The notes beneath the pieces were generated by a model. The model searched no databases and was not told the DNA's origin. It saw nothing but the letters and a program-made list of their open reading frames with translations. This document shows positions 4,466-31,917 of a stretch of 31,917 nt of DNA, piece by piece. The DNA comes from a virus (lineage: Duplodnaviria > Heunggongvirae > Uroviricota > Caudoviricetes > Herelleviridae), in the IMG/VR virus record IMGVR_UViG_2595698877_000001, positions 132,381-164,297 of that record. The stretch is one strand, 5' to 3'. Position 1 is the first letter of the stretch. Each line of letters starts with the position of its first letter. Both the position numbers and the translations under genes were made by a program.

Positions 4466-5568
4466 AAATTGGAGCAATACCCGCAGCGACTATCTCTACA
4501 TTCTTCTTTACTTCTATAGGAGATAGAGCATACGCAGAAACAATTAGTAATGATTCGTTCTTTGATAAAGGTAAGAGTATGTTCTCCGGATTCATCAAAG
4601 ATACATTAATACCTACAGGAACACCAAACCCTATAAAAGAAGTAATGGATTGGTTCGGAGAGTTCGTTACACTTATTAAAGACTTACCACACAATGTAGC
4701 GAAGATGTCCGCAGAGTTACTGTCTTGGATATATGACTTATGCGCTGGACTTATCTTAAAGACTCCTCTGTTCTTATTCGATAATGAATGGTTTACAACA
4801 ATGAGCTTGGGATTTAGTGGAGTATCTATAGGGATTGTAGTTGTTCTCACTGTTATAGAATGCATTAAAAGAATGCTATCTGGAGCAAATAAGAAGCTAA
4901 GACCGATGGAGTTCTCTACAATCATGAAGCGCTGGTCACTTATGGCTGGTGTCACATCGGTAACGCCTTTCTTATTCAAGTCCGCATTCAAATTATTAAA
5001 TCTCATCTCTGGAAAACTTACAAGTATGGGCAGCGAAATTATGACAGCTAGTGCCTTGACTACTACATTTAGTACGATTGATGTTATCACATTGTTAGTA
5101 TTCGATGCGATACTGATTTCTACAGTCATTCCGATGTTATGGACGAATGGAAGAAGATTTTTTGACCTATTGGTATTAGGCGTAGTAGCTCCTGTCGCAT
5201 TAGTATGTTGGGTATTTGATTCACATAGACATTTCTTCCAACAGTGGTGGAGCAATGTAAAGCATTTGTCTTTAGTGCAAGTCTATCATTCTCTATTCCT
5301 ACTAATTATTGGGTTATTCATCTTCGGTATCCCGTTCCCAGCCGACTTCACGGGTACAATCGTTAAGTTGCTCGTTGTAATTGGAGGCTTTGCTCGTATG
5401 CAGAACCCACCTAAAATCATTGCAAACAAATTAGATAATGGAAAGGGATTAGACGAAGTAATGAAGAGTAATGTAAAAGAGACATCTAAAAAGTTAATTA
5501 AGAACTTTGCAATGTCAAAAGCTACAATTTTAAGTCCGTTAGCGTTATTTAAGAAAATTAAAAAATAA
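4342..5568 (+). CDS. polytopic membrane protein, VirB6/TrbL-like topology; start uncertain
   Basis: 408 aa ORF; signal-like segment ending RAYA followed by several TM helices; no good SD at ATG 4342. Confidence 0.65.
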   Translation: MDARHHQRDNASTDKRSEHLHHLSGSKLLIQKFKLLKSRLLKIGAIPAATISTFFFTSIGDRAYAETISNDSFFDKGKSMFSGFIKDTLIPTGTPNPIKEVMDWFGEFVTLIKDLPHNVAKMSAELLSWIYDLCAGLILKTPLFLFDNEWFTTMSLGFSGVSIGIVVVLTVIECIKRMLSGANKKLRPMEFSTIMKRWSLMAGVTSVTPFLFKSAFKLLNLISGKLTSMGSEIMTASALTTTFSTIDVITLLVFDAILISTVIPMLWTNGRRFFDLLVLGVVAPVALVCWVFDSHRHFFQQWWSNVKHLSLVQVYHSLFLLIIGLFIFGIPFPADFTGTIVKLLVVIGGFARMQNPPKIIANKLDNGKGLDEVMKSNVKETSKKLIKNFAMSKATILSPLALFKKIKK

Positions 5569-5580
5569 GGAGAGGTTCCT

Positions 5581-5694
5581 ATGAGTATCACAACACTGAT
5601 TTTACTGAATACAACGATGTTATTGGCGACTGCGGCTGTGAATGCTGTGCAATGTGTCATCATTATGAAGGAGTTGAAGCATCGTGAAGAGTAA
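5581..5694 (+). CDS. 37 aa single-TM peptide (absent from ORF track)
   Basis: SD AAGGAGAGGT; MSITTLILLNTTMLLATAAVNAVQCVIIMKELKHREE; overlaps the ftsK start. Confidence 0.7.
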   Translation: MSITTLILLNTTMLLATAAVNAVQCVIIMKELKHREE

Positions 5695-21300: not shown

Positions 21301-21330
21301 TTGACTTTTAGAAAATGTACGTGATACAAT
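21301..21330 (+). promoter_or_regulatory. sigma-A-type early promoter (18 bp spacer subfamily)
   Basis: TTGACT-18-TACAAT with TG. Confidence 0.75.
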
Positions 21331-21360
21331 GAGGGTAACTTAATAAGGGAGCTGGTACAT

Positions 21361-21531
21361 ATGAAAGCGATAGATAAATCACTTGCTTGTATTAACTTGA
21401 ATACAGTAGAAAGACGCTTAAAAGATTTAATCAGCATTGTTGAGAACGGTGGTACTATCAGTACAGATATAACGTTACAATACATGTTAGAAGATGTTTT
21501 AAAAGTAAAAAGAGTATTAGAGGAGGAATAA
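21361..21531 (+). CDS. 56 aa hypothetical protein (absent from ORF track)
   Basis: RBS AAGGGAGCTG, first gene after a promoter. Confidence 0.75.
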   Translation: MKAIDKSLACINLNTVERRLKDLISIVENGGTISTDITLQYMLEDVLKVKRVLEEE

Positions 21532-21536
21532 AACAT

Positions 21537-21629
21537 ATGTCATTCAGAGGCTCATTAAAAGTATTGGTTATTGTTGGTTTCTTGTTTCTGGTGGGGCGTG
21601 GGATATCATACGCAATCGTACACTTTTAA
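21537..21629 (+). CDS. 30 aa single-TM peptide (absent from ORF track)
   Basis: SD GAGGAGG; MSFRGSLKVLVIVGFLFLVGRGISYAIVHF. Confidence 0.65.
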   Translation: MSFRGSLKVLVIVGFLFLVGRGISYAIVHF

Positions 21630-21640
21630 AAAAATAGTTG

Positions 21641-21669
21641 TTGACTTTTAGCGAATAAAGGTTTAAAAT
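21641..21669 (+). promoter_or_regulatory. sigma-A-type early promoter
   Basis: TTGACT-17-TAAAAT. Confidence 0.8.
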
Positions 21670-21711
21670 GAGAATAGATAAAATAGTTATTTTATGAAGG
21701 GATTGAGAATC

Positions 21712-21882
21712 ATGAACAATAAAATATATATCGTTATGAGTGATTTCGGTTATGATACTAAAAATTTTGAAGGTGCATTCAGTACACCAGAAAAAGCACA
21801 AGAATATACCGAGTATATGGGGAAATGTAGCGGTTGTAAAAAATGTTACTGGTGGGAAGAAGAAGAAATTGACAACCCATAA
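21712..21882 (+). CDS. hypothetical protein
   Basis: ATG 21712 after AAGGGA; contains CSGCKKC. Confidence 0.7.
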   Translation: MNNKIYIVMSDFGYDTKNFEGAFSTPEKAQEYTEYMGKCSGCKKCYWWEEEEIDNP

Positions 21883-21914
21883 ATTAATAAAAAGTATACT
21901 TTATTAAATAGTTG

Positions 21915-21943
21915 TTGACTTTTAGTAAATAAAGGTTTAAAAT
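21915..21943 (+). promoter_or_regulatory. sigma-A-type early promoter (74 bp cassette family)
   Basis: TTGACT-17-TAAAAT. Confidence 0.82.
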
Positions 21944-21975
21944 GAAAGTAACTTAAATAAAGGGAGCTGTTACAT

Positions 21976-22164
21976 ATGACAGATGTTAAAAAAATTGAAA
22001 AGATTAACGCGGTTATCTTGGAATTTGCTTACAAAATAGAAAAGGCTCGTGAGGTTGGGGAACTTATCGCCTTAAAAGAACAAATGCATGTAGAAGCTGA
22101 TAAGTTAGGTGTTAGAGGGGAATACATTGAAGAACAAGCGTGTATAAAATATAACGAAATTTAA
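21976..22164 (+). CDS. hypothetical protein
   Basis: 62 aa ORF; RBS AAGGGAGCTG. Confidence 0.78.
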   Translation: MTDVKKIEKINAVILEFAYKIEKAREVGELIALKEQMHVEADKLGVRGEYIEEQACIKYNEI

Positions 22165-22178
22165 AGGAGCTGTTAATT

Positions 22179-22331
22179 ATGGAAAGATATGATGTGTATA
22201 GAACAGAATTAAAGTTTTTTCCGCTAAAATGTAAAATGTTTATGAAATATAAGATTGTAAGATTACCACCTATGACTGATAACTTTTGGTATGACTTTAT
22301 GCAACGTATTGCGGGTATGAAACAATATTAA
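22179..22331 (+). CDS. 50 aa hypothetical protein (absent from ORF track)
   Basis: RBS AAAGGAGCTG; ends just before the next promoter. Confidence 0.7.
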   Translation: MERYDVYRTELKFFPLKCKMFMKYKIVRLPPMTDNFWYDFMQRIAGMKQY

Positions 22332-22340
22332 AAATAGTTG

Positions 22341-22370
22341 TTGACTTTTAGGAAACACTCATGATATAAT
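22341..22370 (+). promoter_or_regulatory. sigma-A-type early promoter (18 bp spacer)
   Basis: TTGACT-18-TATAAT with TG. Confidence 0.78.
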
Positions 22371-22411
22371 GATTACAGAAACAAAAAACATATAAAAAGG
22401 TGGAATATAAA

Positions 22412-22729
22412 ATGGAAATCAGAAAAATTAATTGGAATGTAGAGTTTAAAAAAGAGATGTCAGAGCTTGAATTATATGGGATTGAAAGTGTAATCGATAA
22501 TTATTGGCATGACGAAACATTTGATTTCGATAGTGAAGTGTTAGGGCTTGCTTATACATCATCTAGTCAATACGCAATGTATAACGTTTGTAACGGTGAT
22601 TTCACTTATTATGATGAAGATTTAAGAGAAGATTTAACAATTAGTCATTTCGCGGTAACAAGTACAGGTCACTTAGTAATGATATGTAATGATAGAATAG
22701 AAAACGAATTTATGTTCGAACTCGTGTAA
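22412..22729 (+). CDS. acidic hypothetical protein
   Basis: ATG 22412 after AAAGGTGG. Confidence 0.78.
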   Translation: MEIRKINWNVEFKKEMSELELYGIESVIDNYWHDETFDFDSEVLGLAYTSSSQYAMYNVCNGDFTYYDEDLREDLTISHFAVTSTGHLVMICNDRIENEFMFELV

Positions 22730-22761
22730 GCGAGTATAAAAAGGCTTTAGGCTTACAGCGT

Positions 22762-22780
22762 CGCGGAGTTTATCTCCGCG
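22762..22780. other. GC-rich hairpin without a U-tract
   Basis: CGCGGAG-TTTAT-CTCCGCG in an AT-rich intergenic region. Confidence 0.65.
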
Positions 22781-22812
22781 GGTAGCAACTAAAATAAATT
22801 TTTAAATAGTTG

Positions 22813-22841
22813 TTGACTTTCTGTAAAGAAAGGTTTAAAAT
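22813..22841 (+). promoter_or_regulatory. sigma-A-type early promoter (74 bp cassette family)
   Basis: TTGACT-17-TAAAAT. Confidence 0.82.
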
Positions 22842-22874
22842 GAAATTAACTTAAATAAAGGGAGATGTTTTATA

Positions 22875-23753
22875 ATGAAACAATTAACATTAACACAATA
22901 CGATACTTTAGAGGCTTTAGACTTTGATATTGATGTATTAGAATCATTTTACGAGTATGACGGTTCAACTTATGTGTGCGACGCTATCACAGAAATTGCA
23001 GACAACTTTATACCTATCTATACAAACGAATTATGGGAAGGTGTACCAAAAATAAAGGAATACATTGAAGAGGCTATAGCACAGGGGTTATGTGAGACAC
23101 CAAGAGGACAGAAAGTAGAATTAGAAAACTTCTATAGAGCGGGGTATTACCAATACTTTACACAACTATTATATAACAATGAAACGGAATTATGTTACAA
23201 TTACATTGCTAAACTTGTTAATAAATGGATTGAAAGCCTTACTTATGACCAACGCGAAAAGTTAGATATTAACGAACTTGATGAACGTGTCGAATATGAA
23301 AGAGCTGATATTGATAATAATAGTTATATGGAAGAGCTGGAAGACATTGCAAAACGTGTTATTGCAGAGTTTAAAGGAAAAGTTAATAAAGATGCAAGTT
23401 GGACGAATTACGGCGACGTGAACGCTTTAGAGCATGGAGGCGACTTTATTAAAAAAGATAGTGATTACCCGCTTGACAAGTGTTATTACTACGTTAAAGT
23501 GATTAATATGTACAATGCATGTGGTGAAGATGGTTACAGAGTCGAAGAGGGTTACATCGATTTAAATGATAGTTGGATTGATTGGAATGCTGTTGAAACC
23601 ACTTGTGATGTATCAGACCGTGACGAAATCAAAGTCATTGACGTTGTAAGTTATTACGGAATGGAAGAGTTTAACGGAGAAACATACAATTTTGATGATG
23701 AGACAGAGGTTTTAGAGCATTTAGCAGCAAAAGGAATTTGTATCGAAAATTAA
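22875..23753 (+). CDS. highly acidic protein with an Ocr-like (T7 gp0.3-like) N-terminal domain; putative DNA mimic
   Basis: DAITEIADNFIPIYTNELW aligns with recalled Ocr DAIHMAADNAVPHYYADIF; about 66 D/E versus 25 K/R by manual count. Confidence 0.65.
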   Translation: MKQLTLTQYDTLEALDFDIDVLESFYEYDGSTYVCDAITEIADNFIPIYTNELWEGVPKIKEYIEEAIAQGLCETPRGQKVELENFYRAGYYQYFTQLLYNNETELCYNYIAKLVNKWIESLTYDQREKLDINELDERVEYERADIDNNSYMEELEDIAKRVIAEFKGKVNKDASWTNYGDVNALEHGGDFIKKDSDYPLDKCYYYVKVINMYNACGEDGYRVEEGYIDLNDSWIDWNAVETTCDVSDRDEIKVIDVVSYYGMEEFNGETYNFDDETEVLEHLAAKGICIEN

Positions 23754-23756
23754 TTG

Positions 23757-23786
23757 TTGACTTTTAGAAAACATACATGATACAAT
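23757..23786 (+). promoter_or_regulatory. sigma-A-type early promoter (18 bp spacer)
   Basis: TTGACT-18-TACAAT; 52 bp (23754-23805) identical to 26414-26465. Confidence 0.78.
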
Positions 23787-23828
23787 AAGGGTAACTTAAT
23801 AAGGGTAACTTAATAAGGGGGTTACATC

Positions 23829-24086
23829 ATGCGAGATATTGAATACATTCTAGATGACTTGGAAAAGTGGCGTGATATTCTCGAAGACCTGTCTATCATG
23901 CATAAGGTAGAAACAACTAAAGAAGGTCTTGACCACTTTGAAAACGAAATCTCTTTTGCACTTGATAAGATTGGCGACTTACAACGTGAGTTAGAAGAGG
24001 CAGAAAGAGAAGAGGCTAAACGCTTTAATACCGCAAATGAGCGCGCTATGTCAGAGGCGGGGCATAATGAAAGGGACTTCCTTTAA
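23829..24086 (+). CDS. acidic helical hypothetical protein
   Basis: 85 aa ORF; SD AAGGGGG. Confidence 0.78.
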   Translation: MRDIEYILDDLEKWRDILEDLSIMHKVETTKEGLDHFENEISFALDKIGDLQRELEEAEREEAKRFNTANERAMSEAGHNERDFL

Positions 24087-24101
24087 AAAGGAGGTTCCCT
24101 T
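24071..24101. other. hairpin spanning the stop codon
   Basis: AAGGGACTTCCTTT pairs with AAAGGAGG(T)TCCCTT. Confidence 0.55.
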
Positions 24102-24117
24102 GTTGGGAGGCTAGGAA

Positions 24118-24288
24118 ATGAATGTAAATAGGTTCTATATAATTCATGAGTTAGCGCGCGTAAAATTGCATTATGGAGGAATTAAGCAAAGACATCTAGA
24201 GAGAAGAGCGAAACAATTAGAAACAACGCCTAAAAATCTTATGATAGCTGTTAACAGGTATATAACGAAACATAACGGAGTCATTTAA
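24118..24288 (+). CDS. 56 aa basic protein (absent from ORF track)
   Basis: SD GGGAGG; stop abuts the next promoter cassette. Confidence 0.68.
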   Translation: MNVNRFYIIHELARVKLHYGGIKQRHLERRAKQLETTPKNLMIAVNRYITKHNGVI

Positions 24289-24297
24289 AAATAGTTG

Positions 24298-24326
24298 TTG
24301 ACTTTTAGTAAAATAGGGTTTAAAAT
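24298..24326 (+). promoter_or_regulatory. sigma-A-type early promoter (74 bp cassette family)
   Basis: TTGACT-17-TAAAAT. Confidence 0.82.
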
Positions 24327-24359
24327 GAAATTAACTTAAATAAAGGGAGATGTTTTATA

Positions 24360-24719
24360 ATGACAGTACAATTACACACATACGAAGATAAGGTTATTAC
24401 ATTCAATAAAGAAAGATTGACTGATTTCGTAGTCAATACATGGGGATTTTCAAGTTTAAATGACTTCTTAAGTGATTACACGTTCGATGATACGGAAGAA
24501 CTAGCAAGAAACAAATACCTATTAGTTACTGATATGAATGTATTAACATGTAAAAATGGAGAAAGTACAATACGTTTAGACATATACGAAGATGGAGAGG
24601 CATACATAGGTGTACATTGTAATGAAACAGATAGAGGTTTTACAGTGAATACCGACGAAGAAACAATGGTTAAAATTGCTGAATACATCTTATTGAAGAC
24701 AAAACGAACAATGAAATAA
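24360..24719 (+). CDS. acidic hypothetical protein
   Basis: 119 aa ORF; RBS AAAGGGAG. Confidence 0.8.
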   Translation: MTVQLHTYEDKVITFNKERLTDFVVNTWGFSSLNDFLSDYTFDDTEELARNKYLLVTDMNVLTCKNGESTIRLDIYEDGEAYIGVHCNETDRGFTVNTDEETMVKIAEYILLKTKRTMK

Positions 24720-24734
24720 ATAAAAAAATAGTTG

Positions 24735-24763
24735 TTGACTTTCAGTAAAAGATAGTTTAAAAT
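24735..24763 (+). promoter_or_regulatory. sigma-A-type early promoter (74 bp cassette family)
   Basis: TTGACT-17-TAAAAT. Confidence 0.82.
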
Positions 24764-24796
24764 GAAATTAACTTAAATAAAGGGAGATGTTTTATA

Positions 24797-25138
24797 ATGA
24801 CAAACTACAATTATTATTCACAAAATGGATTAAGAGGCGAATTACATGTAATATCAGAGGATAAACTTATTTATAAAGTTGAATCATACCGTCAATTAGA
24901 TAGTTCGGAAATAGGTTATGTATACAATCTTGAATTGGTGGCGGGATATGATTACATTGATATTGATTACAGCGACATGCAAGGCTATGTATCTAAAGAG
25001 AACTATGTGGAAGATATTCACCTTGAGCAAATCACGTTTTACCCTATGTCAGAGACATTAACAGAGGCGTTGGGGGATAACGGCTACGAAGTGATTGACA
25101 TAAATGATTACAAGATACACCAGTTTAAAGGGTGTTAG
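24797..25138 (+). CDS. acidic Tyr-rich hypothetical protein
   Basis: 113 aa ORF; RBS AAAGGGAG. Confidence 0.8.
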   Translation: MTNYNYYSQNGLRGELHVISEDKLIYKVESYRQLDSSEIGYVYNLELVAGYDYIDIDYSDMQGYVSKENYVEDIHLEQITFYPMSETLTEALGDNGYEVIDINDYKIHQFKGC

Positions 25139-25165
25139 GCGCTCATACAGAGCGTTTAACCCTTT
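25127..25165 (+). terminator. probable terminator hairpin
   Basis: AAAGGG(TG)TTAGGCGCTC-ATACA-GAGCGTTTAACCCTTT. Confidence 0.55.
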
Positions 25166-25248
25166 GTAATACAAATAGTCTAGAAATAAAGTAAGAACGT
25201 TGTAAGAGGCTGTGAAGAGCCTTAAAATAAATAATAGAGGTGTTATAA

Positions 25249-25446
25249 ATGAAAATGACAATGTTAAACAGAGATGTAAAAGCTATTGAAAATGGTATGC
25301 GTAAGTATAATACGAACGAACAAGGATTACTTGAAATTGTTAACGGTTGGATAGAAGATAATAAGCAGGATGAAGGGAAACCGCAATACAAACAATTACT
25401 ACACTTTAGAGATTGTGTTATAACTTACATCGAATGGCACAATTAA
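25249..25446 (+). CDS. hypothetical protein
   Basis: 65 aa ORF; SD AGAGGTG. Confidence 0.75.
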   Translation: MKMTMLNRDVKAIENGMRKYNTNEQGLLEIVNGWIEDNKQDEGKPQYKQLLHFRDCVITYIEWHN

Positions 25447-25455
25447 AAATAGTTG

Positions 25456-25484
25456 TTGACTTTTAGTAAAATAAGGTTTAAAAT
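25456..25484 (+). promoter_or_regulatory. sigma-A-type early promoter (74 bp cassette family)
   Basis: TTGACT-17-TAAAAT. Confidence 0.82.
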
Positions 25485-25516
25485 GAAATTAACTTAAATA
25501 AAGGGAGCTGTTAATT

Positions 25517-25771
25517 ATGGAAAGATTAACTTTTGAACAATGGAAAGATGTATTTAGAAATGTTGAAGATATCAACAATGATTTAAAGGCGGAGGGCATG
25601 GAAGAAGAGTCTTTAGAAGTTGTATGGCTAGAAAGTACTAATGAATATGTAATTGCAAGCGGTTGTGAAGTAATAGAAGATGAATTTAAAACAGAATACG
25701 ACGCACAAACGCGACTTGATGAGATGGAAAGCAAATATCATGAATATATGGAAAGTCTACCAAAAGCATAA
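25517..25771 (+). CDS. acidic hypothetical protein
   Basis: 84 aa ORF; RBS AAGGGAGCTG. Confidence 0.8.
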   Translation: MERLTFEQWKDVFRNVEDINNDLKAEGMEEESLEVVWLESTNEYVIASGCEVIEDEFKTEYDAQTRLDEMESKYHEYMESLPKA

Positions 25772-25787
25772 CACAGGGGGCGGGAAT

Positions 25788-26045
25788 ATGGACTACAAAA
25801 CAATGAACGCGGTTGAGTTATTAGAAGAGAATCTAATCACAATGGAAAGCACAAAAGAGCTATTAGAAATGCAAATGTTGAACGCACAAGAAAGATACGA
25901 ATACTATATAACAGGTCAACACAAACTGGAAATGATTGCGCTTGTTACAAAAGAAATTAAGGCTATTAAATCACATATGTTAACAGTAGAATTGCAATTA
26001 AAACAACTAAGCTCACTTATTAGAATACTAAAGGGTGAAAATTAA
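25788..26045 (+). CDS. helical hypothetical protein
   Basis: ATG 25788 after AGGGGGCGGG, within ORF-track 25680..26045. Confidence 0.72.
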   Translation: MDYKTMNAVELLEENLITMESTKELLEMQMLNAQERYEYYITGQHKLEMIALVTKEIKAIKSHMLTVELQLKQLSSLIRILKGEN

Positions 26046-26046
26046 A

Positions 26047-26238
26047 ATGAATACAACTATTATGAATGTAAAAGAGTATAATAAGGCGCGTGAACTTGTC
26101 AAACTACATAAGGAGGGTGAATATACACAACTAGCTTTTAAAATAGCTGTTATATATGATACACAAGATTTTAGATATATATCGAATGTTATGGAAATGT
26201 ATGTTAAAGAGACAGGCGGGGCGGTTAATGGATATTAA
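26047..26238 (+). CDS. hypothetical protein
   Basis: ATG 26047 after AAGGGTG. Confidence 0.72.
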   Translation: MNTTIMNVKEYNKARELVKLHKEGEYTQLAFKIAVIYDTQDFRYISNVMEMYVKETGGAVNGY

Positions 26239-26413
26239 CGAAATCATTATAACAGGCGCTATAGGGCTTACATGCGTTGTTAGTGCCTGTTATAGTACTT
26301 ACATAATAGGATACAATAAAGGCGTATCAGCGACGCAAAAAGCCGTTACAAGGCTAATAGAGGATGAAATAAAAGAAATCGATACAAAGAAGGGCGAAAT
26401 AACTTTTAAATAG
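26228..26413 (+). CDS. small single-TM protein
   Basis: ATG 26228 after GGCGGGG; IIITGAIGLTCVVSACY hydrophobic stretch; stop is the TAG of AAATAG. Confidence 0.72.
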   Translation: MDINEIIITGAIGLTCVVSACYSTYIIGYNKGVSATQKAVTRLIEDEIKEIDTKKGEITFK

Positions 26414-26416
26414 TTG

Positions 26417-26446
26417 TTGACTTTTAGAAAACATACATGATACAAT
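26417..26446 (+). promoter_or_regulatory. sigma-A-type early promoter (18 bp spacer)
   Basis: TTGACT-18-TACAAT with TG. Confidence 0.78.
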
Positions 26447-26476
26447 AAGGGTAACTTAATAAGGGAGCTGGTAAAC

Positions 26477-26656
26477 ATGATAGGCTATGTTAACTACTGT
26501 ATTTTCAAAAAGAAGTATGACTTACATGTAATTTGTTTAGGTGAAGAGGTTGAAAGCTTTAGCAACTTATCACACAAGGAAATGAAAGAGATAACAAGCA
26601 ATAAACCGCATGTTATGTGGATGTACCCAGAAGAGTTCGGAAATAGTTCATATTAA
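26477..26656 (+). CDS. 59 aa hypothetical protein (absent from ORF track)
   Basis: RBS AAGGGAGCTG, first gene after a promoter. Confidence 0.75.
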   Translation: MIGYVNYCIFKKKYDLHVICLGEEVESFSNLSHKEMKEITSNKPHVMWMYPEEFGNSSY

Positions 26657-26718
26657 AAATAGGGGCGCTCTAGTACAGGGCGCTCACTATAAAACAAATT
26701 AAAGGGAGCTGTTATACA

Positions 26719-27009
26719 ATGTCAATTAGAGGAATGGAATACTTTTTAGAAGATACTTTTCAAGAATTAGGCGCGAGCTATAATAGACTGACAATCGCAC
26801 ATAGATATAAAATAGGTCATCCAAGTAATGAAGTTATTATATCATACGGTATCAACGGAAACAATGAAGAGGAATATAAGTTATATACAGGTAATGGCAA
26901 ACATACAACCGTAACAAATAGTAAAGACGTTCTGTATTTAGCTTTAGAACATGTTTTAAAGGCTTACAGCATTGATAAAAACTATAGCGCATACTTAGAG
27001 GGGGTTTAA
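26719..27009 (+). CDS. hypothetical protein
   Basis: 96 aa ORF; RBS AAGGGAGCTG. Confidence 0.78.
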   Translation: MSIRGMEYFLEDTFQELGASYNRLTIAHRYKIGHPSNEVIISYGINGNNEEEYKLYTGNGKHTTVTNSKDVLYLALEHVLKAYSIDKNYSAYLEGV

Positions 27010-27012
27010 ATA

Positions 27013-27249
27013 ATGAAAGATGTATTTACAAGACTAAAAGAAGAGAACAAAGAGTTTATTGTACCAGAGAGCGCAATTATAAAAGGTAGTCAATTAAAAG
27101 ACTTGTCAAACAATGAATTATTACATTACTACGAAAAGTTAGAAAGATGGATTTCAAAAGGCTGGAAACATGAAGGACGTTATATATTGCAAGACTATAC
27201 ACGTTATGAAATTCTAGACAGAATGAAGGGAGCTAACAATAATGACTAA
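27013..27249 (+). CDS. hypothetical protein
   Basis: 78 aa ORF; SD GAGGGGG. Confidence 0.75.
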   Translation: MKDVFTRLKEENKEFIVPESAIIKGSQLKDLSNNELLHYYEKLERWISKGWKHEGRYILQDYTRYEILDRMKGANNND

Positions 27250-27496
27250 AATAGAAGAGATTGAAAAAGGGCGTTACATGATTGTGCTATCACAAGCGGA
27301 ATTGAATACAATTTCATTACTATTAGGTAACTACGATGGAGACGACTATATCAGAGATATTGGTGAAGAGTTCGAAGACTACCCACATGAGCCGGATAAC
27401 GCAAATAACAACTACGTGACAGGCGTTAAAGCCGATGAACTATACAATGCATTCTATAAACACAGAATGCGCACAGCAGACGGAGAGGGGCGTTAA
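27242..27496 (+). CDS. acidic hypothetical protein
   Basis: 84 aa ORF; RBS AAGGGAG. Confidence 0.75.
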   Translation: MTKIEEIEKGRYMIVLSQAELNTISLLLGNYDGDDYIRDIGEEFEDYPHEPDNANNNYVTGVKADELYNAFYKHRMRTADGEGR

Positions 27497-27497
27497 A

Positions 27498-27668
27498 ATG
27501 CAATTACAATTAAAGGTTAAAATATTATTAGAAGATGGAAGAGTTTATATAAAACCAGAGGATGTAAACGAAATGGAAAGCACACTAGAAGAAATGAATA
27601 TCAAATACTTTGTAATCCCTATTAACAGCTACATGACTATGATTGAGTTAAATATAGAGGAGATGTGA
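27498..27668 (+). CDS. hypothetical protein
   Basis: ATG 27498 after GAGGGG. Confidence 0.72.
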   Translation: MQLQLKVKILLEDGRVYIKPEDVNEMESTLEEMNIKYFVIPINSYMTMIELNIEEM

Positions 27669-27672
27669 CATA

Positions 27673-27840
27673 ATGAATAAATTCTTAAGAGCAATGGAAT
27701 TAATAGAACAAGCAAACAAACTATTAACAGAGTCAGTTATGGAAAAGGAAATAACTTATGAAGACTGGGAACAAATTCATGCTAATAGTAAAAAGAGTTT
27801 AGATGCTTGTATAAGTACATATAATAAAGGAGCTGTTAAA
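27673..27840 (+). CDS. 55 aa hypothetical protein (absent from ORF track)
   Basis: SD GAGGAG; fills the gap between neighbours. Confidence 0.68.
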
Positions 27841-27842
27841 TA

Positions 27843-28100
27843 ATGAAAACAACAATACACTATGCAAACGAATATGATATGTTTGATTGGTTTAATAATA
27901 TTGCAGAAAGAAAGATAAAAGTAGAGGATATAGACGCGGGAAGTTTAATAAACATATATAAAGCATTTATTGAAGAATACAAACATGAAAAGATTTGGAG
28001 AAAAGACGTAGAGGACATCACACCAGCATTGCAGGAGGCTATTGCAGTCGTAGAATCTTATTTCATGAAACACCTACCAAACAACAAAGGAGCTGTTTAA
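27843..28100 (+). CDS. hypothetical protein
   Basis: 85 aa ORF; RBS AAAGGAGCTG. Confidence 0.78.
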   Translation: MKTTIHYANEYDMFDWFNNIAERKIKVEDIDAGSLINIYKAFIEEYKHEKIWRKDVEDITPALQEAIAVVESYFMKHLPNNKGAV

Positions 28101-28102
28101 TA

Positions 28103-28432
28103 ATGACATTCTTATCAAGTAAAGAAATATATAAAAGAAACTGTGAACTTATCGCAAAAGAATTTACAAAAGGTACTGAGTACATTGTAGAAGAAAGAGA
28201 AATGGACATAATAGGCTCATACAGATATAGAGTGAAGTTAAAACATATTGATACGGTTATACTTGTTAGTTATAATAATGAAACATATAAGTATGAGGGA
28301 TATGTACAATGCAATCACCCAGAATTTCACCAAACCTTTGATATAGAATCAGAAATAACAATGGAAATATATGATTTCATTAAAAGTAAAGTAGAAATGA
28401 TAACAAGCATACTCATATACTATAAAGACTAA
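28103..28432 (+). CDS. hypothetical protein
   Basis: ATG 28103 after AAAGGAGCTG. Confidence 0.78.
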   Translation: MTFLSSKEIYKRNCELIAKEFTKGTEYIVEEREMDIIGSYRYRVKLKHIDTVILVSYNNETYKYEGYVQCNHPEFHQTFDIESEITMEIYDFIKSKVEMITSILIYYKD

Positions 28433-28456
28433 TATATAATAAAGGAGCTGTATATT

Positions 28457-28633
28457 ATGCGACTGACTAATGAAGAACGTATTAAAAGACTATCAGAACT
28501 AGGAAAAGAAATAAATAAAGAGTATGCACTATATAAAGAAGCTCAAGATAATAATGATAGGGAAAAAGCAGAAATACACGCGGATAAATATGATATACTT
28601 ATGAATGAGAAAAGAGAACTACTATTCGATTAA
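28457..28633 (+). CDS. 58 aa charged helical protein (absent from ORF track)
   Basis: RBS AAAGGAGCTG. Confidence 0.72.
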   Translation: MRLTNEERIKRLSELGKEINKEYALYKEAQDNNDREKAEIHADKYDILMNEKRELLFD

Positions 28634-28654
28634 CATACAAGAGGAGCGAACAAG

Positions 28655-28834
28655 ATGAACATGAAAGAGTTAGCAGGTAAGAGAGTACAACATAAGGACG
28701 GAAACATATATTATATAGATAGTGCTATGCATACAAGTAATGATGTAATACTATTCTTAAGGGCGCAACCTGATACACCTATTAAGCGTACAGTCAGTTA
28801 TTTTAGAATGGATATAGAATACATAATACTATAA
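28655..28834 (+). CDS. 59 aa hypothetical protein (absent from ORF track)
   Basis: SD GAGGAG. Confidence 0.72.
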   Translation: MNMKELAGKRVQHKDGNIYYIDSAMHTSNDVILFLRAQPDTPIKRTVSYFRMDIEYIIL

Positions 28835-28851
28835 AAGGAGCTGTATATATA

Positions 28852-29049
28852 ATGAATGGTTTCGTATTAGTTAATAGAGAAGGATTAAGAGGTTTATATG
28901 TCAGATACAATGAAGACATAGAAGATATAGATATAAGGATAACTATAGGGTGTGTTGATAACGTATCAAGTGAGTTTACAATGAGCATAGAAGACTTTAT
29001 ATTCATATACGGTCATTTAGTAGAACTAGGTCATTTAGTAGAGGTATAA
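28852..29049 (+). CDS. hypothetical protein
   Basis: 65 aa ORF; RBS AAAGGAGCTG. Confidence 0.75.
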   Translation: MNGFVLVNREGLRGLYVRYNEDIEDIDIRITIGCVDNVSSEFTMSIEDFIFIYGHLVELGHLVEV

Positions 29050-29099
29050 ACCTATTATATATAATAACAACTTAAAATAAACAGACAAAAATAATTAAT

Positions 29100-29200
29100 A
29101 GAAAAAGTTAAAGCCCCAGCTTTTGTATTTGATGTCCTGCTCACACTAGAGTATATAACTTGCATCTATAAGAGGAGGCGGGGCGCGGGGTTTAATAGAG
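29100..29200 (-). ncRNA. candidate C-rich small RNA
   Basis: Minus-strand promoter upstream; 5'/3' end pairing; CCUCCUCUU anti-SD; ends in CUUUUUC. Confidence 0.3.
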
Positions 29201-29206
29201 TCATAT

Positions 29207-29235
29207 ATTATAAGGTTGAAATATAAGCAACACAA
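29207..29235 (-). promoter_or_regulatory. candidate minus-strand sigma-A promoter
   Basis: TTGTGT-17-TATAAT read on the minus strand. Confidence 0.4.
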
Positions 29236-29265
29236 AAAGACTAGTAGCCCGCTGGATTACTAGTC
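29234..29265 (-). terminator. minus-strand intrinsic terminator
   Basis: GACTAGTAGCC-CGCT-GG(A)TTACTAGTC hairpin with AAAAA on its left side (a U-tract on the minus strand). Confidence 0.65.
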
Positions 29266-29784
29266 ATCGTTACATCTATCCTTATGACAATCTTTATATC
29301 ATGGTGTATAAGTTTTTTGACAATTGAAAACATGAAGGTTATATCCTAATAGTAAGATGTGTAAGTTGTCAGAATATTATACACAATTCCGCATGTTGTC
29401 GGAAATGATATAAAGATGTCTGTAAACAGCATACAATAGGACAAGTTGTAAAAGCAAGCGGAAATAAAAGAAAAATTGTTTTGAATTATCGAATAATAGG
29501 ACAAGTTATAGTTATCAGATAACTTTATTATATGTAATAAGAGAATGATTCTAATGTGCAGAATAGTCTGACAATTAGGACAGTTCGTGCTGCTGCAATA
29601 GACAGAATAGTCAGATAACTATAATGATTATAATTTATATAATATTCTGATAATTCTAAATACTTTACAATAGTTGTCTAAATGTTCAGATAATTTAGAA
29701 TATATAATTAACTTGACAAATGGTAATGTTTATGATTGGTGGCAGTTGTACGAATAGTCTGACAATTCTGAATACATAATTAAC

Positions 29785-29813
29785 TTGACATATATAATAG
29801 AGTGTGGTATATA
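29785..29813 (+). promoter_or_regulatory. sigma-A promoter with no adjacent ORF
   Basis: TTGACA-17-TATATA with TG. Confidence 0.65.
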
Positions 29814-30028
29814 TAGGTAGCTGTTTGAATAGTGTTAATATTCAAATTGTTTATAATATTCTGACAATTTATAAATCAGGTTAAAATACAGTGAGCCGGG
29901 AAGCCTTGATATGACTAGGTTTAAGAGTCCATTTCCTCCGTATGAGCTTCTAGCAGTCTATCTAATACACTTGTGAGGGGTATGGCTTAGAAACGCTGTG
30001 AGAGGCTGTGAGAGGCTTTAAAAAAGAT

Positions 30029-30057
30029 TTGACAAATTCATAGATATATGTTATATA
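30029..30057 (+). promoter_or_regulatory. sigma-A promoter
   Basis: TTGACA-17-TATATA with TG. Confidence 0.65.
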
Positions 30058-30153
30058 CGTATACGCTTGTACATGTGTTATATAGAGGAAATAGTTATTA
30101 CAATATTCTGACAATTCTGAATAGTTAAACTTTAATTAATCGGTAATATATTG

Positions 30154-30182
30154 TTGACTAAAAGTATATAATGTATTAATCT
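30154..30182 (+). promoter_or_regulatory. sigma-A-type early promoter
   Basis: TTGACT-17-TAATCT. Confidence 0.72.
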
Positions 30183-30212
30183 AAGGTTAATCAAATAAAG
30201 GGAGCTGTTAAT

Positions 30213-30470
30213 ATGTTCAAACTAAATAAATTATTCAAAAAGCTTGTGGAACTTGGTGTGAGTCCTTATATGGTTGATGATGAAATTCACGTCGAGGGGT
30301 GCAACTGCAATATGACAATTAAAATGGAAATCGGAAGGTTTGCCCTAGATGCTTGGATGCAGGAAAAATACTTAGATGAACACGGCGCTGCAAAACGTAT
30401 TCTACATACTGATGTTGTTAGTCGTGGAGATAAGAAAATTATAGAGTTTGTAAGTGATATGTGCTTCTAA
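30213..30470 (+). CDS. hypothetical protein
   Basis: 85 aa ORF; RBS AAGGGAGCTG. Confidence 0.8.
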   Translation: MFKLNKLFKKLVELGVSPYMVDDEIHVEGCNCNMTIKMEIGRFALDAWMQEKYLDEHGAAKRILHTDVVSRGDKKIIEFVSDMCF

Positions 30471-30499
30471 AAGGTCGGCTCAATGGAGCGGGCTTTTTT
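30471..30499 (+). terminator. intrinsic terminator
   Basis: GGTCGGCTC-AATG-GAGCGGGCT followed by TTTTT. Confidence 0.75.
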
Positions 30500-30561
30500 C
30501 ACTTGTCTTAATTGTCAGAATATTTAGAATAGTTTTATTTTAATTAATTGGAATAAAGGGC

Positions 30562-30590
30562 TTGTCAACTGCGTATAATAGTATTAAGAT
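30562..30590 (+). promoter_or_regulatory. sigma-A-type promoter (upstream member of a tandem pair)
   Basis: TTGTCA-17-TAAGAT. Confidence 0.6.
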
Positions 30591-30631
30591 AAGGGTAGTT
30601 AAACGAGAGGCAAACAACTTGAAAATAGTTG

Positions 30632-30660
30632 TTGACTTTTAGTAAAGTACATATTATAAT
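30632..30660 (+). promoter_or_regulatory. sigma-A-type early promoter
   Basis: TTGACT-17-TATAAT. Confidence 0.85.
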
Positions 30661-30693
30661 AAAATTAACTTAAGAAAAGGGAGATGTTTTATA

Positions 30694-31560
30694 ATGACAG
30701 TTGTAAACGAATATAAAAATAATATCGAGGTTATCACGGAGCTTGCTACTAATAAGGAGCTAAACAATGCAATTCGACTAACTGAATATAAAGGCTTCCT
30801 AGTTACTTTAGTGAATGCATACGAGGACGTACAAAGCGGTTACTCAATCTTATGCGCTGAAGGTGATATCACGAACGCGGTTAATGAGTTAGTAAATAGC
30901 GGTCTTGTAAAAGTTAATACAGCAGAGGAAAAATATACAATCACATTCAAACATGCAAACGGTTTGGAATGCACTCGTATTGTGATAGCGACTAGTAAAG
31001 AGCATGCAACTAAACAAGTTAATGAATCATACAATCATAACGGAATCATTTCTATTGAAAAGGAGGAAAAACAAATGTTCGAATTAAACCAAGAGGTAAA
31101 CGTAGAGATTTTCAAAGGTGCTAAATTCAGTGGTAGAATCGTAGACGTTAACGCTTATCAAACGGTTATCTGGGTAGAACGTGCAGAAGATTGCGAGTGG
31201 TTTATGGTTGATGTAATGGAAGACAAAGTTGTATTCGTAGACGAAAAGGAAGAAGAGCGCGCACCAGAGGGACTAAAGACTCTTAAGGAGCTTAAAGAGG
31301 CTATTGCAGACGAATTAAAGGGTCAATGGTATGAAGAGATTGAAAGCGTAAAGGTTGCTGTATATAATAGCGATGAGGACGGAGCAGAGGTATACGACTG
31401 TGAGGTACAAATTTTACTTGACAACGGCGAGTCCATATATCCTACATTTGGCACGTTCTATAATGAAAAGGACGCGCTTGCATACGCTCGTGATATGCGT
31501 GTCAAGTTAAATCGTTCGACATATACTATCACTGATAAGGTTTGGGTATACTCTTGCTAG
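30694..31560 (+). CDS. multidomain hypothetical protein with an internal in-frame start
   Basis: 288 aa ORF; RBS AAAGGGAG; internal AAAGGAGG with ATG at 31075. Confidence 0.8.
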   Translation: MTVVNEYKNNIEVITELATNKELNNAIRLTEYKGFLVTLVNAYEDVQSGYSILCAEGDITNAVNELVNSGLVKVNTAEEKYTITFKHANGLECTRIVIATSKEHATKQVNESYNHNGIISIEKEEKQMFELNQEVNVEIFKGAKFSGRIVDVNAYQTVIWVERAEDCEWFMVDVMEDKVVFVDEKEEERAPEGLKTLKELKEAIADELKGQWYEEIESVKVAVYNSDEDGAEVYDCEVQILLDNGESIYPTFGTFYNEKDALAYARDMRVKLNRSTYTITDKVWVYSC

Positions 31561-31613
31561 TATGCCCAGCTAGTACCATATATTAAAACTACTATATAAA
31601 GGAGCTGGTATAT

Positions 31614-31781
31614 ATGAAACGTATTCTAAAGGCTATTACAGGGCTATATAATCACTTGGTATGTAAGGAGGCTAATACTATTGATAATAAGGTAGAGCGC
31701 ATGCAGGAGGGTGTGAGAGCCTATAATACTACTATTGATAATATCATTCATAATAATGCTAGACTGTTAGAAGTAAAATGA
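31614..31781 (+). CDS. 55 aa hypothetical protein (absent from ORF track)
   Basis: RBS AAAGGAGCTG. Confidence 0.65.
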   Translation: MKRILKAITGLYNHLVCKEANTIDNKVERMQEGVRAYNTTIDNIIHNNARLLEVK

Positions 31782-31917
31782 ATATCTGCACTCATGAATA
31801 TACCAGTTTGTCAAGTATTATTTTGTCAACCCTTTTCTATATTCGATTTCATAGATATAACCCACCCCGTGCTTTATAGACCATATGTTCGGGGATGGTA
31901 CCTACCTCCCGCCTACC

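Follow-up and report, generated by a model that had tools for sequence, protein, structure and literature searches.

The gene at 22875-23753 encodes a single, strongly acidic protein in which two modules are joined. As judged from profile comparison, the protein is genuinely, though remotely, related to the T7 anti-restriction DNA mimic Ocr and is longer than Ocr itself; the Ocr-like core, residues about 13-120, is followed by a helical extension that is specific to the family, and then by an acidic alpha/beta domain that belongs to a family of its own. The reading proposed here is that of a bipartite early acidic protein, in which an Ocr-type DNA mimic directed against DNA-recognising defence is combined with a separate acidic module, and the chance that this reading is correct is put at about even. 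By analogy with Ocr, the whole protein is a plausible two-part anti-defence factor. The features on which the argument draws are as follows.

22813-22841, + strand: promoter-like site TTGACT-17 nt-TAAAAT of the sigma-A/sigma-70 type, matching 10/12 consensus positions
22857-22865, + strand: Shine-Dalgarno-like AAAGGGAGA, 10 nt before the ATG, by direct reading of the sequence
22875-23753, + strand: complete coding sequence of 292 aa with an ATG start, stop codon included, from the reading of the ORF and a full-length match to PHROG 3460 (E 2.3e-113)
22911-23234, + strand: Ocr-fold core, residues about 13-120
22980-23036, + strand: signature motif D-A-I-x3-A-D-N-x2-P-x-Y-x3-L-W, residues 36-54, reading DAITEIADNFIPIYTNELW and common to T7 Ocr residues 36-54
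23235-23390, + strand: family-specific helical extension, residues 121-172, from the model, conservation and the coverage of the PHROG 2568 profile
23391-23750, + strand: C-terminal acidic alpha/beta domain, residues 173-292, of a mobile family, from PHROGs 12969, 38432 and 17818 and the model

The signature motif had been picked out in a first-pass annotation of the same DNA, and was read again at the same residues and nucleotides. That annotation had also counted about 66 acidic and 25 basic residues by hand; the recount gave exactly these figures (29 D and 37 E against 17 K and 8 R), corresponding to a net charge of -41 and a pI of 4.11. The acidity is present in both halves of the protein, with a net charge of -20 (pI 4.25) for residues 1-172 and of -21 for residues 173-292.

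Genomic setting and promoters

The window (the whole stretch of DNA that was analysed, 31,917 nucleotides) is the last 31.9 kb, positions 132381-164297, of a complete phage genome of 164,297 bp, in which the gene is present in one copy. The DNA is 80-88% identical to that of Bacillus cereus-group Bastillevirinae myophages, e.g. B4, Troll, Juglone and BigBertha. An exact direct terminal repeat of 2,800 bp was measured in the genome (genome 1-2800 = 161498-164297; window 29118-31917). Because the repeat is exact, the last 2.8 kb of the window are a second copy of the left end.

A promoter cassette belonging to the gene itself had been proposed from the first reading, and a promoter-like TTGACT-17-TAAAAT was indeed found upstream, at 22813-22841. 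With the strict pattern TTGACT-N16-18-TAHAAT, 11 sites were counted in the window, every one of them on the + strand, where 0.18 would be expected. Across the genome, nine of the 13 plus-strand sites fall within 153.7-158.8 kb, around the Ocr-like gene, which lies within the densest cluster of consensus promoters and about 5 kb from the right 2,800-bp terminal repeat. The clustering therefore places the gene in a block of small promoter-equipped genes, and the stereotyped, host-type promoter of each gene in this block suggests early expression.

The cassettes themselves have a regular form. Eleven that are near-identical lie on the + strand at window 21301-30660, with the form TTGACTTT(T/C)AG...(GGTTTAAAAT or CATGATACAAT), and two spacer/-10 subtypes alternate among them. 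The terminal repeat contains one of the cassettes (genome positions 1515 and 163012). Between the stop codon of the upstream ORF and the promoter-like site of the Ocr-like gene (window 22762-22780, + strand) there is a GC-rich inverted repeat with perfect 7-bp arms, CGCGGAG and CTCCGCG, on either side of the loop TTTAT. It was missed by the terminator scan because a T-run does not directly follow it, but it may mark the end of the upstream transcription unit.

Four further small acidic ORFs were seen nearby, all on the + strand: 22400-22729 (105-109 aa, net -16), 23829-24086 (85 aa, net -13), 24797-25138 (113 aa, net -14) and 25517-25771 (84 aa, net -16). All four fall in PHROGs of unknown function, and the orthologue of the ORF at 23829-24086 in phage vB_BcgM is labelled 'DNA mimic domain containing protein'. 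These neighbours may form a cluster of polyanionic, host-directed proteins.

Relationship of the N-terminal module to T7 Ocr

The string attributed to T7 Ocr in the first-pass annotation was right: residues 36-54 of T7 gene 0.3 (NC_001604) read DAIHMAADNAVPHYYADIF. Direct BLASTP of the protein against T7 Ocr gave a weak match (8/21 identities, E 0.04 as a single comparison), and since this pairwise match is weak by itself, profile and fold tests were needed to exceed chance. Against PHROG 2568 ('ocr-like anti-restriction') the protein scored E 4.5e-30, with residues 2-171 aligned to positions 9-158 of the 161-position profile; for T7 Ocr the corresponding values were E 2.5e-57 and positions 1-116. 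A diverse family profile of 21 sequences was assembled from relatives that included distant stand-alone IMG/VR proteins of 150-233 aa. When this profile was compared with 177,635 PDB sequences, the top two matches were both T7 Ocr (1s7z and 2y7c, E 0.0019-0.002), and the match spanned Ocr residues 10-106 of 117. Comparison of the 21-sequence alignment with Ocr by hhalign gave a probability of 79.7% (E 1.5e-5), and the local family HMM scored T7 Ocr at E 5e-5.

The predicted structure is consistent with this relationship. The AF2 model of the N-terminal module has a pLDDT of 92.6 and is a compact all-alpha monomer, as expected of the Ocr fold, and the structure of RNAP with Ocr (6r9b) appears among its fold matches.

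Narrower searches did not recover the link. Single-sequence phmmer against the PDB returned nothing, Pfam and NCBIfam searches with the full protein gave zero matches, and a shallow profile of close relatives (A1) failed to find Ocr in the PDB and reached an hhalign probability of 8%. The same A1 profile matched designed armadillo repeats at E 0.003, and these matches were judged to be spurious. It was after the distant stand-alone IMG/VR relatives had been added to the profile that the link to Ocr emerged. The Pfam ocr family (PF08684), which had been suggested earlier as a check on the homology, matched neither the protein nor any of seven relatives at E up to 10; the gathering score of that family is 25 bits, and T7 Ocr itself scores 215 bits. 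In the curated AntiDefenseFinder survey, Ocr is confined to Teseptimavirus and Kayfunavirus (PMC11724313). This narrow range and the lack of a PF08684 match together imply that the relationship is distant, and that function may have drifted.

Column by column, 23 of the 93 positions in the profile alignment are identical to T7 Ocr, and overall identity to T7 Ocr is about 19-25%. The signature motif is closed by W54, which is aligned to F54 of T7, a residue that is required for Ocr dimerisation and full activity (PMC9122126; PMC7261183). W54 is invariant in the A1 alignment of close relatives and is not kept in the most distant of the stand-alone relatives. Of the 24 acidic positions of T7 Ocr in the alignment, only ten fall in family columns where most residues are acidic, so that the family keeps the charge as a whole and not position by position. 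The family median net charge for the N-domain is -32, against -28 for T7 Ocr, and both the net charge and the pI of residues 1-172 are those of a polyanion with a pI of about 4. One orthologue, from phage Chotacabras (61% identical), is labelled 'HU-like domain-containing DNA binding protein'. This label was supported by none of the searches and is at odds with the Ocr-like label carried by other orthologues.

The N-terminal ~110 residues had been proposed as an Ocr homologue. The homology stood, on the evidence of PHROG 2568, the family profile and hhalign; the extent did not, as the module reaches residue 172. In the model, residues 121-172 form three helices (124-129, 132-143 and 152-171) around a D147-N-N turn that hardly varies within the family. 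The extension, which the stand-alone Bacillus-phage relatives share and T7 Ocr lacks, accounts for the 161-position length of the PHROG 2568 profile, of which T7 Ocr covers only the first 116. The stand-alone relatives found in other phages (150-233 aa) finish in poly-acidic tails, as does the C-terminus of T7 Ocr.

The C-terminal domain and its association with Ocr-like genes

Residues 173-292 matched PHROG 12969 (E 6.9e-21), PHROG 38432 (E 1.7e-7) and PHROG 17818 (E 3.8e-6), all of unknown function. An exhaustive HMMER search of 1.84 billion representatives returned 146 clusters (50% identity) at E up to 0.001, and most of these are stand-alone proteins of 110-130 aa. One of the 146, P0121 (1346 aa, '11 stretches'), was rejected as a false positive with thrombospondin repeats. 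The family shares the pattern W-x-N-Y-G-D...H-G-G...Y-V-D-x2-D-x-W-I-D-W...Y-Y-G, with G8, D9, G16, G17, D57, W62 and Y89 (domain numbering) almost unchanged throughout. It is consistently acidic, with a median net charge of -15 and a pI of 4.18, and 141 of the 143 isolated-phage records that contain it are Bacillus phages; the family is widespread in Bacillus Herelleviridae and close to exclusive to large Bacillus myophages.

The AlphaFold2 model of the domain has a pLDDT of 95.0 and is predicted to consist of a beta-meander, then helices, plus one more strand. With its largely stand-alone family and its own negative charge, this confident model upholds the earlier suggestion that the C-terminal part is a separate acidic domain. 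The best match of the model in BFVD was an 'uncharacterized protein' of Bacillus phage Spock, with 100% identity over 118 aligned residues, and the BFVD matches as a whole were Bacillus-phage proteins with uninformative names. Foldseek found nothing in the PDB, the AFDB clusters yielded uncharacterised proteins only, Swiss-Prot models returned nothing and the Atlas feature search gave nothing usable. An Atlas shape search produced weak rows only, among them WGR at TM 0.45, and these were set aside. The family profile had no match among PDB sequences (best E 0.87), a Pfam search of 53 family members identified no common family, and the genomic context of two stand-alone homologues consisted of small unannotated phage ORFs only.

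The fusion of this domain to the Ocr-like module is conserved in several Bastillevirinae lineages, with orthologues down to 55-61% identity (CAM003, Chotacabras), and the junction (residues about 165-177) is free of indels in all fused forms. In the other fused forms of the C-domain, the partners are unrelated, have no similarity to the N-domain, and gave no informative Pfam or PHROG match. The two modules are also found as neighbouring genes. In BCP8-2 (Caeruleovirus), the C-domain gene 068 is two small genes upstream of the stand-alone Ocr-like gene 065, and in phiAGATE (Agatevirus) a divergent C-domain protein, gp026, is encoded one annotated gene upstream of the Ocr-like gp024; in both phages the Ocr-like gene and the best copy of the C-domain are about 0.6 kb apart. 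Four complete genomes in which the Ocr-like gene stands alone were checked: the C-domain family is present in two of them, in each case beside the Ocr-like gene, and absent from the other two. Fusion in one lineage together with adjacency in others is a classic sign of a functional link, but the evidence is weakened here because all of these genes share one crowded early block of small genes.

In phiAGATE, the gene for gp026 ends at a TGA and that for gp025 starts 9 nt further on in the same frame (positions 1775-2416 of the locus). The C-domain profile match (query positions 2-115, '1 TGA') crosses the gp026 stop, which could reflect a split gene, a pseudogene or a sequencing error. Weaker C-domain-like ORFs (E 7e-5) are present in the terminal repeats of phiAGATE at 1985-2209 and 149160-149384, and phage Thurquoise has a clear member of the family at 5308-5598, in its annotated left terminal repeat. 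These repeat copies suggest that the family has repeatedly been placed in the first-injected, early-expressed ends of phage genomes.

The fused C-domain is a concrete candidate for a new anti-defence module: it is small, its fold is predicted with confidence, no relative of it is known, and it is found repeatedly with Ocr-like genes, either fused to them or as their neighbour. It is possible, though doubtful, that residues 173-292 represent a new phage anti-defence family, with either a new acidic-inhibitor fold or a new type of DNA mimic, and that their fusion to the long-form Ocr yields one polypeptide that disarms two defence systems. If the family proves to be an anti-defence module, the finding would gain weight.

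Proposed function, alternatives and known systems

T7 Ocr is a dimer with a surface that imitates about 20 bp of bent DNA, and it occupies the DNA-binding sites of type I R-M and BREX (PMC7261183). What the analysis establishes for the present protein is its homology, fold, domain architecture, composition and family distribution, and the promoter-like site; dimerisation, DNA mimicry, the targets, early timing and any role of the C-terminal domain are inferred. On the proposed reading, this bipartite and strongly acidic protein would be produced early in infection. Residues 13-120 are predicted to take the fold of T7 Ocr, to which residues 121-172 add three helices. The N-terminal module would probably dimerise through an interface that includes W54, as the counterpart of T7 F54, and the dimer would display a DNA-like array of carboxylates. 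This surface could then fill the DNA-binding groove of DNA-recognising defence complexes in Bacillus cereus-group hosts. The most plausible targets are type I R-M (HsdM/HsdS) or BREX complexes with a PglX/BrxX-type methyltransferase, either of which would be blocked before it attacked the phage DNA; B. cereus encodes a characterised BREX system that was among the first shown to be phage-protective (PMC7261183). Residues 173-292, as a separately evolving alpha/beta module, would most likely give the polypeptide a further protein-binding specificity.

The mimic surface could instead be that of a host-takeover factor, targeting host RNA polymerase or nucleoid-associated DNA-binding proteins and contributing to early host shut-off. 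The gene lies in a stereotyped block of strong promoters with several small acidic proteins of unknown function, an arrangement known from the host-takeover modules of SPO1-type phages. T7 Ocr also binds bacterial RNA polymerase (6r9b; PMC7261183), and Ocr, ArdA and Arn interact with H-NS as well (review, PMC12707154). This explanation is nevertheless considered unlikely, as type I R-M and BREX are the only systems against which a biological role of the Ocr family has been demonstrated (PMC7261183), and no feature of the sequence points specifically to RNA polymerase. A role outside DNA mimicry altogether, with the Ocr fold retained as a scaffold for some other activity, would fit the identity of about 19-25% to T7 Ocr, the lack of a match to Pfam ocr, the retention of under half of the aligned T7 acidic positions and the extra three-helix extension. 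It is thought very unlikely: the family has kept its extreme acidity throughout, its signature motif and, in the stand-alone proteins, the poly-acidic tails, all of which would be difficult to account for if a polyanionic surface were not under selection.

The remaining alternative concerns the C-terminal domain, which might be an accessory to the Ocr-like mimic, lengthening or capping the acidic rod, setting its oligomeric state, stabilising it, or hiding the mimic from systems that sense Ocr. Such sensing exists, for example in PARIS (PMC9122126). The domain matches the mimic in acidity, and the indel-free junction in all fused forms suggests a fixed geometry. However, most members of the family stand alone or are fused to unrelated, non-Ocr partners, and complete genomes with an Ocr-like gene can be without the domain. 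Because it is mostly found apart from Ocr and can be dispensed with in genomes that have an Ocr-like gene, the domain must have a function of its own, and a purely accessory role is regarded as quite unlikely. The reading preferred here is thus the one given at the outset, of an Ocr-type DNA mimic joined to a separate acidic module.

The literature treats Ocr as a protein of the T7 group of coliphages; the profile and fold evidence presented here is for a long-form family in large Bacillus myophages. The label 'Ocr-like' is already applied automatically, in PHROG 2568, in RefSeq (BCP8-2, phiAGATE, Deep Blue and Bobb) and in GenBank (vB_BcgM, Jabberwock, Anthos and BillyBob), and a paper on a B. 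cereus phage carries it without analysis (PMC12651245). A literature search for experimental or structural studies of a Gram-positive Ocr homologue found automatic annotation only, and found no description of the extra helices, the fused domain or the C-domain family. If the protein is active, Ocr-type DNA mimicry would extend to Gram-positive hosts, and the protein would serve as a tool with which to probe the type I R-M and BREX systems of Bacillus.

ArdA, like other folded DNA mimics, is an acidic protein that blocks type I R-M by imitating DNA. Membership of the ArdA family (PF07275) was rejected for the present protein, which had no Pfam match, and ArdA and the other mimics were absent from the fold matches of either domain. 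The closest known system is T7 Ocr (gp0.3; PDB 1s7z, 2y7c, 6r9b, 8q56, 8zek and 9ex7; PF08684; PHROG 2568). T7 Ocr has a short acidic tail and comes from a T7-like podophage, whereas the protein described here has three extra helices (121-172) and a C-terminal domain of 120 residues, and belongs to a 164-kb Herelleviridae myophage of a Gram-positive host. The stand-alone Ocr-like proteins of Bacillus myophages (BCP8-2 gp065, phiAGATE gp024, Deep Blue and Bobb) are 39-52% identical to it over residues 1-172, including the extension and the D-N-N turn, but have a poly-acidic tail in place of the C-terminal domain. The proteins of PHROGs 12969, 17818 and 38432 resemble residues 173-292 in their conserved pattern and acidity; they differ in being mostly single-domain proteins of 110-130 aa, or in being fused to unrelated segments.
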